The notes under the pieces are model-generated. The model saw only the letters and a list, made by a program, of their open reading frames with translations, did not search any database and was not told the origin of the DNA. The translations under genes and the position numbers were made by a program. 64,000 bases of DNA from Octopus vulgaris (taxonomy: Eukaryota): positions 37,200,001 to 37,264,000 of the forward strand of contig OX597822.1 of the NCBI GenBank assembly GCA_951406725.2, written 5' to 3'. Positions 47,101-56,100 of the stretch are shown piece by piece. Numbering within the stretch: position 1 is the stretch's first letter; each line of letters begins with the position of its first letter.

Positions 47101-50100
47101 GGTGGTGGTGGTGGTGGTGGTGGTAGGTTCTAAGTTTGACACAAGGCTAGTAGTTTTTAGGGTAAGAGACATGGTCAGTTACATCGTCCCGCGTACTTTG
47201 GTACTTTATGTTATTGACACCCCACACATGCACATTGCGCACCAAAAAAAAAAAGAAAAGATGAAAGCCAAAGCTGATCACAACAGGATGTGAACTCAGA
47301 ACATAAAGAGTCTGAAGAACTGCCACTAAACATTTCTGCCCTTAATAACTTTTTCCATATTTTAACACAGGTTCAGCAATTTTAGATGAAGGGGTTAACA
47401 GATCATATTAACCCCGGTACATGATTAGTACATTATTTTATCAACCCCCAAAGCGAGTAGTAGTAGCAGCAGCAGTATTTGTAGTTTCTAATTTGGGCAC
47501 AAGGCCAGCAATTTTGAGAAGACGGGACAAGTAAGTTACATCTTCCTCTGAACTTAACTTCTATCTTTCATGTTTTACTTGTTTCTATCATTAGATTCTG
47601 GCCACGCTGGGGCACCGCCTTGAAAAATTTTAGTTGAATGAATCAACTCCAGTACTTTTATTTTTTTTAAGCCTGGCACTTATTGTATTGGTCTTTTTTG
47701 CTGAACTACTAAGTTACGGGGACATAAACACACCAACACTGGTTGTCAAGCAGTGGTGTGGAACAAACACAGGCACAAAGGCATGCATACATAGATATAA
47801 ATACACATACACACACACACATATATATATATAAGGTTATCCTGAAATTGAAGTTGTGGTCCTATTAGTAAAATCCCAAATTTGTAATAATATTATAATT
47901 GATATTGTTTGCTTTGCATTAGTAAAGTCTAAAATAGTATATAACCTGATAACTTGGAATAATTACAATTTATTTATATATATATATATATATTTATATA
48001 TATTATAATAGTAGTAGTAGAAGTAGTAGTAGTAGTAGTAGTAGTAGTAGTAGTAGTAGTAGTAGTAGTAGTAGTAGTAATAGTAGTAGTAGAGAATAGA
48101 ATTCCAAACTTACAAGAAAAAATTCGATTTAGCAACTCTTATTCAGATTTTACAATATATAATAATATATGTATATAATTAAGAGAAATAACCTGTATTA
48201 AGCAATTTAATAGTGAAAGACATTATCTATATTATACAGAAAAAATTTAGATATACTATGATAAATATTATTCAAAAAATCAATAAATTAAATAAACGTT
48301 AAATTGACTACGTGCATTTTGTGACTATATCTTTTAACTCGATAATAATAAAATTGATACTATTAAAATTAATTCGATTTAAAAATATAACCACTCTTCA
48401 GGTCAATTTAATATTTATTTAATTTATTGATTTTTTAAAAATAATATTAAAATTTTTTTTATATAATAAAGATAGTGTCTATCACTGTTGAATTGCTTAA
48501 TAGAGGTTATTTCTCTTAATATACATATATATATATATATATATATATATATATATATATATATGTATGTATACATATATATTATATATATATATATGTA
48601 TATGGTAAATGAAAGACAGAAGATGGAATATACAAGAATTTATTAATCACAACAATTGTTTCAACACATCTAGCATCGATTCCTCAACAACAGGTGTAAA
48701 CCATTCGTTTTATTATACATTATATATATATGCGTAAGCTTGCAAGATATGCATAAGCTTGCAAGAAATGAAGCCAGTATGCTCCGATGGATGTGTAATG
48801 TCAGTGTTCATACTCAACAGAGTGTAAGTACTTTGAGAGAAAAGTTGGACCTAAGAAGCATCAGTTGTGGTGTGCAAGAGAGACGTTTGCGCTGGTATGG
48901 TCATGTGGCGAGAATGGATGAAGATAGTTGTGTGAAAAAGTGCCACACCCTAGCGGTTGAGGGAACCTGTGGAAGAGGTAGACCCAGGAAAACCTGGGAC
49001 AAGGTGGTGAAGCACGACCTTCAAACTATAGGTCTCACCGAGGAAATGACTAGAGACCGAGACCTATGGAAGTATGCTGTGCGTGAGAAGACCCAGCAGG
49101 ACAAGTGAGGCCATAATCCCGTGGTCTACACCTAGGATGTAGCCAGCCCACTTATGCATTCCTTTCCTTCTTGGGACTCAAAACTCCACTTGTGAAGACC
49201 TGTTGAGGCAAGTGAAAATCAAAATCAAAATCGTAATCTATCAACATCAATGGAATTTGTAGCTGTGATACCAGTGCCGGTGGCACGAAAGAGAACCATC
49301 CGAACGTGGCCGTAGCCAGCACCACCCGACTGGCCTCCGTGCTGGTGGCATGTAAAAAGCACCATCCAACCATGGCCGTTGCCAGCTTCGTCTGGTCCCC
49401 GAGCCTGTGGCACGTAAAAAGCACCATCCAATTGTGGCCGTTTGCCAGTCTCGTCTGGCACCTGTGCCGGTGGCACGTAAAAAGCACCCACTACACTCAC
49501 GGAGTGGTTGGCGTTAGGATGGGCATCCAGCCGTAGAAACACTGCCAGATCAGACTGGGCCTGGTGCAGCCTTCTGGCTTCCCAGACCTCGGTTGAACCG
49601 TCCAACCCATGCCAGCATGGAAAGCGGATGTTAAATGATGATGATGATGATGATATATATATATATATATATATATATATATATATATATAATTTTACAT
49701 TTATTTACAACTTGATTTTTTAATTTCACCGGAGTATAAATACCTATAATGGTGATACTTATAAAACTTCTGTCCCAACCCATAGCTGCCCAAGAGGTGT
49801 AAAAATACAAAAATTTTACTTACGAACAGTGCTGATAAATGGCGACTTTGATGATCGTACAAGATTTATACAAGATTTCTTACATGGTACTTTGTAAGAG
49901 CCTCCATAGTAGTGAAGATAGTGAGGTTTAGAAGAGTAAAGGTCTCCATACTGGTACAGATACTGTGGTTTCAATGAATAAGAGCTTCCATAGGGGTAAT
50001 GATCGTAGGGTTTAGAAGAGTAAAGACTTCCAAAGTGGTGAAGGTTGTGGGATTTTGATAAGAAAGAGCTTCCATAGTGGTGAGGGTCATAGTGTTTAGA

Positions 50101-53100: not shown

Positions 53101-56100
53101 ATGCAATAAATGTGCATGCTTGTGTAATGCATGGCTTTGTGTGTGACTCAATCCTCCAAAAGGATGCAGTAAGTGTGAACGAACATGAGATACCTGAGTG
53201 CGAGCATGAGACACCTGAGTGTGACTGTGTGATGTTAATTTTTTTCCATATGGCCCAAGATGGTAATTATAAAGGGTTTTGCTGGGGTAATAATGGGGAT
53301 AGAGCTGGTTGTAAATGTGTGGGGCAAGATAGTGGTCACCATGGTGGTGGTGGTGGTGATGATGGTGGTGAAGATTTTGATTCAGATGAACGTTGACGTT
53401 ATGGTTGTTTTTCTGACTGACATGAATTGATTGTTGATGAACTGGATAATGAAGTGGATAACGAAGTGGATAATGAGGAGGATAATGAAGAAGATAACGA
53501 CCATTTAGGTAGTAATTCGGGAAGCCATAATATGAATTGTAGTAACCACTACATTTATCCAGGGGACAGTGACTGCTATAAACTATAGGAAAGCATATTG
53601 ATTTGTTCCTGGAAATAAACATAAAATTAAAACAATTGTTAAAAATCTATAAAACAATGCATATATATATTATTTTTTTTTAACATTATAAAGACGTAGC
53701 ATCAATTTTCTAGCACTCCTTGACCCAGATCCATGCCAGATAATCTGTTTTGTTTGATTAACAGAAGGCATGTGATAATAATTCTTGGTAAATTCCTGGC
53801 AGACAGGCACCACATAATCAATAACTTTTCACTACTAAGACTTCACAACACACCTTTGTTTATTTGCTATGATTGTGTTATAAAATTGGAAACATTTTTC
53901 CAATCCTTTTACTATAATATCAAGGTGCCAAAGTCGAAATAATCTAACGCTTTATGCTAATACCTAAAACAAAATCTAAGGCCATTTTCTAATGCTTAAA
54001 ACAGAATTCAATGCCAGTGCCAGGCCATCTCTTGAAATGTAACTGTAAAAGGTCGATAGTAATTGTTTCTCTTTTCTTGCTAGAATACTGTCTCCTCTGG
54101 TGAAGGTACATGTTTTAATGGTTAGGATATTCAGCTCATAGTCATAAGGCTGTGAGTTCAATTCCTGGCATCATGTTATGTCCTTGAGCAAGACACTTCA
54201 TTTCCAATTATCCCAGTTCAGTCAGCTGGCAAAAAAATGTAATTCAAAGGGTCAGCCATGTTACATTCTGTGTCACACTGAATCTCCCTGAAAACTATGT
54301 TAAGTGTATCCATGTCTGTGGAGTACTCAGAGAACTATGTTAAGGGTATGTGTGTCTGTGGAGTACTCAACCACTTGCATGTTAATTTCACAGGCAGAAC
54401 CCTTATTGTCATAATCAATGGAGTACCAGTTTGTTTGTTTTTTATTATATCCACTGCAATGGATGTAATGATATCCCTATCAATTTGCTCTTTGAAGAAA
54501 GAGGGTCTTTAGAGTATTAGCATATGGTGCTGAATTTATTTTTAAACATCTGCATTTTCATATTATTGCAATCATGTATAAGAAGAGTGTTTCTACCTTC
54601 ATAATGAGTTACTAATAAATAAATAAATGTGTGCTGTGAAGACTTGGTTGTGAAAAAGTTGTTAATAAGATTTATGGATTCTAACATAAGATTGTCCAAA
54701 TTAAAAAGAGATGCTGGATCATCACTTGCAGAAAAATTGATGCAGTGCGAATATATAAAGGTGTTAAAACATACAGAATATACATAACAGTGTTTAAAAA
54801 TGATATAAAATAAAGTAAAATGAAGTGTAAAGATGGAAAAACAAATGAGTTTGGTGTTGGTATAATTTGAACTTTGAACATAGAGTGATGTATACTAAAT
54901 GTTATTGAGTATTTCCTGTGATGCTGCTGTTTCTCTGTGGAAGCCATGTTTGGGAGTTAAGTGTCTTTGACAAGAAAGAGATGAGCTCTGGTATGAATTC
55001 ATAGTAATTTTGGTCTGGTTAATTAACATACCTACCAGAGAGAGCCATACACCTCACTTTGTATGCTAAGCAGCAGCAGCAGGAGCAGTGTTATCAGAAA
55101 CAAAGTCACTTTGCTAATCATCATCATATTATCACCATTTCCACCAACACAATCAACTTCACAATCTTTAACACCATTGTCATCATCCTAATACTACTAC
55201 CATTAATAATCATCTTCAGTTTCTCCATCAGCATCAGCGTCGTTGTTGTTGTCATCATCATTGTCATTGTCATCAGAAATATTAACTGGATAAACTTAAT
55301 CACATCCATGCTACAAGAGGAAATACAGAAAGAATTGAACACTTACCTCAAAGGGCCAGAACAGCAATCAATATCTGTGGAATACATGGAACAATAGTAA
55401 AAACATATTTCACAAATTTGAAAAAATGTTTGTTCAATTTCAGATTAAATTCCCTGTTGTTTGTTTGTTACTTTTTAATGTGAATATTTCATCTGCCATT
55501 ATATCATTAGACTTGTGATTAGATTTGATCTATTGTGGCGTCATTTCATTTTTCATTTTAATAATGACATCATGTACAGGAGGAACATTGCATTCTTAGT
55601 CATGATACACCATGGAAATAGGATAACTGATCCTATGATTCTGAGGATTTGAGACAGTAATGTTCAGGGTTTAATACTCATCTAATTATATTTGGTCCGT
55701 ATTAGTTTTATTTGAGCCATCAAAATCTCATTTGATCTGTAGCAGGAATATTTAGCAATTGAACTCAAATCATTTTATCCAATGCAAAAAAAGCAACTCA
55801 AGAATATGATTGTGATTTACTAAAATATTACCAACATCATAAAAAAAATTGGACCATTCAAGACTTCGTATGGAACTGGATGTAACAGTAATTTCCTTTT
55901 TGGCACACTTTTTCTGAGCAAGACCACCACTATAAATTCAGCACATTTTAGCCACTTCTGATAGACAGTGGATGGCAAACATCAGACTGGACACAGAAGA
56001 TGGCAGTCAGTAGACAGTGGGACAAACAGCAGACGGCCAGAGTACTGTGACAGTACAAAAACAATGGACAGGTGGTGACAGCAACACACAATAATCAGCT

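Follow-up and report, generated by a model that had tools for sequence, protein, structure and literature searches.

Within a 64,000-nucleotide stretch of the Octopus vulgaris genome (contig OX597822.1, positions 37,200,001 to 37,264,000; hereafter the window, in which all positions are given), a heme peroxidase gene on the minus strand has its catalytic domain split in a single loop by a giant in-frame exon coding for a His-rich stretch of more than 1,200 residues. This insert bears three proprotein-convertase sites that are conserved in Octopus bimaculoides. We give an even chance to the reading that the gene encodes a secreted proprotein of the oviducal gland, which would provide structural protein to the egg coat or to the cement of the egg string, with the peroxidase domain serving mainly as a carrier.

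A peroxidase gene with a giant loop exon

The gene comprises 13 coding exons on the minus strand between 61568 and 36071, every intron being of the GT-AG type, and the spliced model forms one open frame of 1,841 amino acids with a signal-peptide-like hydrophobic N-terminus as judged by hydropathy (Table 1). Its sixth exon (53608-49824) lies in a frame that is open from stop to stop over 53646-49819, a length of 1,276 codons that slightly exceeds the 1,268 given in the initial annotation. As that annotation had proposed, the frame is not a standalone gene: with an acceptor ending in TTTCCAG and a GTAAGT donor, exon 6 is entered in phase 2 and left in phase 1, and it joins the 28-nucleotide (nt) exon 55374-55347 and the exon 46676-46587 in frame. 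The insert, first put at about 1240 residues in one exon, was counted at 1,237 between the motifs CFPI (residues 149-152) and CINLVRSS (residue 1390), and consists of 22% His, 14% Ser, 11% Leu, 10% Tyr, 7% Pro and 7% Lys.

The lack of any stop or frameshift over 3.78 kb was borne out, the coding frame of exon 6 being free of stops against 36-254 in its other five frames and at least 36 in the best frame of every one of 1,000 shuffled versions. Frame length alone is no proof, because satellites of the same genome also yield long frames; one such satellite, at 167.69 Mb on contig C3 (locus L053 of genome G000, in which the window lies on contig C9), is open over 468-709 codons in each of the three frames of one strand and makes a useful negative control for long frames in this genome. 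All 24 tandem-repeat rows within exon 6 had periods divisible by three, compared with 10 of 28 outside it, the rows overlapping one another. In the longest His array, seven units were found to differ by 16 synonymous and 9 non-synonymous single-base variants (p=5e-5 for an expected share of 0.25).

Placement of the insert in a heme peroxidase loop, another claim of the initial annotation, was upheld by a profile built from 59 relatives with octopus left out, which gave the predicted split match (residues 38-155 and 1387-1838) with nine profile positions skipped. All five flanking exons tested matched PF03098, three of them above the cut-off. The best relatives are 36-45% identical, and the top Atlas matches were chorion-peroxidase clusters, arthropod chorion peroxidases and peroxinectins being the nearest named ones. 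From the distal His to the calcium (Ca) loop, the octopus protein spans 1,288 residues versus a median of 77 (122 motif pairs in 118 of 155 proteins); above 92, the only other distances were 815 in the O. bimaculoides ortholog, a single 156, and two that bridge tandem domains. A loop-length pattern limited to at most 60 residues, to which long inserts are invisible, gave 116 matches of 5-26 residues. Beyond the O. bimaculoides ortholog, no insert of comparable size was seen in the relatives examined. Six paralogs within the genome have a homologous exon of 107-122 nt, with phase 2 in and phase 1 out; since exon 6 shares these phases and a single loop is split, it appears to have grown from within the ancestral short loop exon. 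The paralog placed closest, on the same strand of C9 at a distance of 1.1 Mb (38359248-38379031; L002, L031, L032), has a normal 116-nt loop exon.

Searched alone, exon 6 found no relative among 4,953 candidates, no Pfam family and no Atlas match, and no donor gene was found in the animal's own genome with three pieces of the insert. On the boldest reading considered below, an insert with no homolog elsewhere in the genome would be a material protein that arose de novo by repeat expansion within one exon. Weak matches on contigs C3 and C11 were dismissed as satellites open in several frames.

The ortholog in O. bimaculoides is RefSeq XP_052826901.1 (LOC128248768), a gene prediction of 1,294 amino acids named 'uncharacterized', with the same micro-exon, the same junctions and the same split architecture around a 764-residue insert; its Pfam match has an E value of 4e-118 in two stretches. 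This model is without exons 1-3, hence without a signal peptide, and an older one (UniProt A0A0L8IF09) holds the C-terminal part only. Both enzyme parts are 94% identical between the two species. The inserts share 72% identity over 693 aligned positions, with 544 positions gapped, mostly in the His/Leu array of 63-70-residue units, which has been amplified in the O. vulgaris gene. As the same open architecture is held by a separately assembled genome, an assembly artefact, which the initial annotation had named as a possible refutation, is very unlikely. Relative searches turned up no ortholog from squid, cuttlefish or another octopod, most matches of one listing being unnamed.

It was also considered that the insert might be mostly spliced out or skipped, or might represent tolerated repeat growth in a decaying gene, with the RefSeq model predicting the same mistake. 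Splice sites were scored with a small matrix built on 12 true sites of the gene itself. This gave no good donor in the first 150 nt of exon 6 (best 3.6, true-site median about 6.7) and no good acceptor in its last 200 nt (best 3.1, true-site median about 7.7), although partial skipping is possible through one strong internal acceptor-like site (51374) and three donor-like ones (53422, 50871 and 49884). If exon 6 were skipped entirely, the downstream frame would shift and two cysteines of the loop would be lost; no short isoform was present among 80 shorter proteins. The frame is moreover open in two species of very different repeat content, with conserved cleavage sites and a synonymous excess, whereas the older UniProt model with its C-terminal part only, a domain that is the most degenerate of 60 and the fact that no junction read was obtained speak for loss or decay. 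Among the sequencing runs listed for 49824-51400, none was labelled as RNA; 26-52% of the words of this stretch occurred in four runs of one study, guessed to be RNA, and 56-74% in three probable DNA runs from three organisms; a 51-nt piece in run X2 (57083-57133, depth 5) stops where a spliced exon 3/4 contig would, a weak hint. We consider translation of the whole of exon 6 highly likely and its removal or decay very improbable.

Convertase sites and the peroxidase active site

The motif R-x-K-R, the consensus of furin and related proprotein convertases, occurs exactly three times in the insert, each time before a Ser, and three times at matching places in O. bimaculoides despite repeat turnover between them. 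The insert of the window has no other Arg/Lys-Arg pair, and that of O. bimaculoides has one more. With a hydrophobic N-terminus and three sites conserved in two species, the protein has the features of a convertase proprotein, and we think it probable that the insert is cut in vivo. From the three conserved sites it follows that the mature product would probably be several chains and not one fused enzyme-substrate. Two peptides would be released, one of 123 residues (14.8 kDa, 21% Tyr) and one of 166 residues (20.8 kDa, 19% His, 16% Tyr), leaving an N-terminal chain with a 765-residue His-rich tail and a C-terminal chain with a 183-residue His/Tyr/Gly/Ser repeat head. All predicted pieces have an isoelectric point (pI) of 9.3-10, the small released peptides lying at 9.5-10.

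Myeloperoxidase and eosinophil peroxidase mature into two chains by a natural light/heavy cut near the loop that is expanded in octopus. The far edge of the insert aligns to residue 30 of the myeloperoxidase heavy chain, and its nearness to the natural cut makes a cut fold and a two-chain peroxidase domain plausible by analogy. Maturation of myeloperoxidase removes a few residues, whereas the octopus protein would release 289 and retain about 950 as tails. The insert also has three additional cysteines at its ends (158, 163 and 1386), which are conserved in both species and could clamp its base.

In the peroxidase numbering of PMC3533774, the octopus protein keeps Gln91 (Gln121), His95 (His125), Asp96 (Asp126), Arg239 (Arg1475), His336 (His1576) and the Ca loop at 1413. 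The heme-ester residues Asp94 and Glu242 are both replaced by Ser; relatives have Asp at the former site in 107 of 132 motifs and Glu at the latter in 108 of 137. These ester residues are not required by every member of the family. Asn421, the hydrogen-bond partner of the proximal His, is Phe1675, a residue found at this site in none of 132 motifs from 120 relatives; 115 of the motifs have Asn, and Ile, Thr, Ala, Val or Trp occurred in nine, all in proteins of more than 1,000 amino acids, six of these with a second, Asn-bearing domain. In addition, Arg424 is changed to Lys and the Gly before the proximal His to Ser. Overall, of the 60 sequences compared, the C-terminal part of the octopus protein retains the smallest share of conserved columns, 67 of 80 (median 95%).

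Among the paralogs, one on C20 (about 60.12-60.14 Mb; L003/L038) has Leu at the Asn421 position, so loss at the active site is not unique to the insert-bearing gene in octopus. The nearest paralog on C9 has the canonical Asn, with a longer Pro/Cys/Thr-containing stretch after the proximal His. At 12.06-12.31 Mb on C20, at least five divergent peroxidase-like genes are clustered (L012, L020, L021, L022, L025); their exons seemingly lack the proximal His motif and in part the distal Arg, and may form a family of pseudo-peroxidases.

The fold predicted for the C-terminal part of the O. bimaculoides ortholog (predicted local distance difference test (pLDDT) 79, predicted template-modelling score 0.85) aligned with myeloperoxidase over 396 residues with a Z score of 33.4 and a root-mean-square deviation of 2.4 A; a prediction without alignment gave a pLDDT of 34 and was not used. 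On this model the domain appears to be conserved as a structure. With neither the proximal Asn nor the two heme-ester residues in place, normal peroxidase or cross-linking activity is doubtful, and we rate the chance of some useful enzymatic activity at a little under even. The proposal in the initial annotation of a secreted cross-linking enzyme fused to its own substrate thus stands in part: the signal peptide and a likely secreted material agree with it, but the three cleavage sites and the degenerate active site do not.

Link to the oviducal gland and the egg

Evidence on tissue came from Octopus maya. The quantitative PCR (qPCR) primers published for its 'chorion peroxidase' (PMC8976471) fit exons 3-4 of our spliced model at 17 of 20 bases each and lie exactly 116 nt apart on it, the length of the published amplicon. 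The junction of exons 3 and 4 falls within the forward primer, and translation of the reverse primer gives precisely the O. bimaculoides peptide. Exon 4 is single-copy in the genome, the next match being 31% identical. A 16/20 match of the reverse primer in the C20 paralog region was rejected as intronic. Given the primer fit and an exon 4 without close paralog, the O. maya transcript is very probably the ortholog. It was reported with a BLAST value of 3e-9. Against two arthropod peroxidases, the N-terminal part of our protein scores 6e-6 to 0.01 by itself and the C-terminal part 1e-47 to 1e-52; this poor N-terminal scoring would account for the weak published value and fits a contig that holds the N-terminal part only, although any fragment would look alike.

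According to PMC8976471, the O. maya transcript is up in fertilised, egg-laying females (qPCR P=0.016) and down in senescence, and neuroendocrine convertase 1 and a dual oxidase rank high among the genes differentially expressed in the oviducal gland. This gland produces and polymerises the egg cement, and a pH near 5.2 is given for the distal oviduct (PMC13336147, after earlier work). The oviducal expression indicates egg coat or cement rather than beak, and the insert-bearing peroxidase may be a component of either. Of the tissues listed in the initial annotation, egg-case cement thus gained indirect support from expression in O. maya, and none was found for beak, radula or sucker.

In the mechanism that we propose, the female oviducal gland would secrete the proprotein as a structural supply for the egg coat or egg-string cement, and a convertase of the furin or PC1 type would cut the three sites, setting two basic peptides free. 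The N-terminal enzyme chain with its His-rich tail and the C-terminal chain with its repeat head would stay paired, much as in myeloperoxidase. The basic pieces may then condense with the acidic mucopolysaccharide of the gland, and setting could follow, by way of His-metal and Tyr cross-links, as His is deprotonated on passing from the acidic oviduct to seawater. The peroxidase domain would act as a carrier for folding, secretion and anchoring with weak or altered activity, oxidative curing being left partly to other enzymes. A stronger version, in which octopod egg glue derives from a polyprotein grown de novo in a peroxidase loop and the surrounding cement is cured by the retuned two-chain enzyme itself, we hold at roughly one chance among several.

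The same composition and residues could instead suit an active cross-linking enzyme that carries its own substrate in a hard tissue, be it beak, radula or sucker cuticle, and replaces the histidine-rich beak proteins of squid. The insert has 17-22% His and 10-16% Tyr, the distal His and Arg and the proximal His are kept, and no histidine-rich beak proteins were found in O. bimaculoides (PMC9068888), so that any His-rich protein of the octopus beak would have to come from elsewhere, or there is none. Yet the only tissue evidence found is oviducal, the active site has suffered losses, and the content of Gly, Ala and His together is 31% against more than 50% in beak proteins (PMC11931252). We judge such a role unlikely.

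Cationic antimicrobial peptides rich in His are known, and the small, basic, His/Lys-rich peptides could likewise kill microbes or bind Zn or Cu on the eggs during brooding, accompanied by a peroxidase domain of innate-immune type. Antimicrobial oxidation is among the roles of the family (PMC3533774), and the O. maya transcript peaks at egg laying. Most of the insert (765 + 183 residues) would remain on the enzyme chains, however, the repeats are Tyr/Gly/Ser-rich like those of structural proteins, and the halide-oxidising site is degenerate, which leaves defence of the egg surface distinctly improbable.

Several points weigh against the structural egg-protein reading itself. PMC8976471 sampled oviducal glands only, and the amplicon, from another species, lies upstream of the insert and does not span the giant exon. 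In the load-bearing fibres of the egg thread, octovafibrin is the only detectable component (PMC10336842); a peroxidase is not mentioned in the parts of that paper's text or supplement searched, where the green cement, which is separate from the thread, is only described. Without its first unit, the longest array has 6 synonymous versus 5 non-synonymous variants (p=0.035), and two short arrays show no synonymous excess (0 versus 3 and 0 versus 2). Among the contig pieces listed from four sequencing runs over 53230-57140, mostly from an intronic repeat, the first 380 nt of exon 6 and exon 5 were uncovered and no splice joint appeared. Finally, the catalytic His, Arg and Gln, the proximal His and the Ca loop are kept in a domain that is 94% conserved, so activity is possible.

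Gene features, related systems and significance

Table 1 Features of the peroxidase gene in the window
Feature	Position	Strand	Basis or remark
Exon 1 (coding), start codon and hydrophobic signal peptide	61529..61568	-	hydropathy
Exon 2, 25 nt, end of signal peptide	60845..60869	-	picked from sequence by phase, without homology support
Exon 3, An_peroxidase profile 1-33; O. maya forward primer across exon 3/4 junction	58936..59093	-	
Exon 4, distal Gln121 and His125, Ser at Asp94 equivalent, O. maya reverse primer site	56953..57132	-	
Exon 5, 28-nt micro-exon, Cys-Cys pair	55347..55374	-	XP_052826901.1 peptide differs by one change
Exon 6, giant loop exon, 3,785 nt	49824..53608	-	
1,237-residue insert between two loop cysteines	49873..53583	-	
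His/Leu/Ser/Ala array, 63-70-residue units, about 7.5 copies	51670..53157	-	short remnant only in O. bimaculoides
Convertase site 1, RYKR/S, residues 914-917	51289..51300	-	
Convertase site 2, RYKR/S, residues 1037-1040	50920..50931	-	
8-residue His/Lys/Pro/Tyr repeat, 8.5 copies	50601..50803	-	
Convertase site 3, RHKR/S, residues 1203-1206	50422..50433	-	
14-residue His/Tyr/Gly/Ser repeat, 10.5 copies	49894..50335	-	on predicted C-terminal chain
Exon 7, intact Ca-binding loop	46587..46676	-	
Exon 8	46015..46122	-	
Exon 9, distal Arg1475 retained, Ser at Glu242 equivalent	43039..43284	-	
Exon 10, proximal His1576 retained after Ser not Gly, Asn421 equivalent Phe1675, Arg424 equivalent Lys	40370..40886	-	
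Exon 11	38452..38609	-	
Exon 12	36729..36828	-	
Exon 13, up to stop codon	36071..36161	-	final few residues unlike O. bimaculoides

A further small exon beyond exon 13 is possible. Directly before the start codon, 61569-61600 has the polypyrimidine/AG character of an acceptor, and an untranslated first exon therefore probably lies further upstream. An intronic high-copy repeat at 54150-54400, probably a short interspersed element, attracted very many contigs in all four runs compared with 53230-57140. Fragments resembling the reverse transcriptase of long interspersed elements were recognised by eye from translations at 31135-32313 (-), 33297-33842 (+) and 48674-49108 (+).

The gene shares with the peroxidase-cyclooxygenase superfamily the profile match on both sides of the insert, a myeloperoxidase-like fold and a likely egg-related role; it departs from it in the length between distal His and Ca loop and in the loss of the Asn421, Asp94 and Glu242 equivalents. 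The closest architectural precedent known to us is nacrein (N66), a carbonic anhydrase of pearl oysters that is split by a Gly-X-Asn repeat and acts in a material. It too is a secreted mollusc enzyme with a low-complexity repeat inside its catalytic domain, but it belongs to another enzyme family and its insert is much shorter; we know of no convertase polyprotein in nacrein. Squid histidine-rich beak proteins and suckerins are also His-rich, repetitive materials of cephalopods, with pH-driven coacervation (PMC11931252). They are stand-alone clustered genes reported only in decapodiforms (PMC9068888), with other motifs and composition and without an enzyme domain; besides its lower Gly, Ala and His content, the octopus insert showed no GHG motif by eye, beak proteins being marked by GHGxx pentapeptide repeats.

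No published description of the split-peroxidase architecture or of its accessions was found in a search that left most subscription papers and bioRxiv supplements outside; the covered parts of PMC9999432, PMC12817120 and PMC5995198 do not describe it. That the architecture is undescribed, as the initial annotation supposed, holds for the papers searched, but the fused model already stood, unnamed, in RefSeq for O. bimaculoides. The new points are the conserved convertase sites, the link to the O. maya primers and the degenerate active site.

In the literature searched we found no description of oviducal egg-cement proteins, and the gene supplies such a candidate by name, with peptide masses that can be tested. 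What has been taken in O. maya for an ordinary hardening enzyme, the 'chorion peroxidase', would be reinterpreted. If the self-curing version were true, one gene would supply glue peptides and an enzyme with its own His/Tyr substrate tails in a fixed ratio. More broadly, an exon of 110 nt that grew more than 30-fold inside a folded enzyme, gaining processing sites, would represent a route to new structural proteins. The finding may be relevant to octopus culture, where heat makes egg laying fail, and to the design of wet adhesives.

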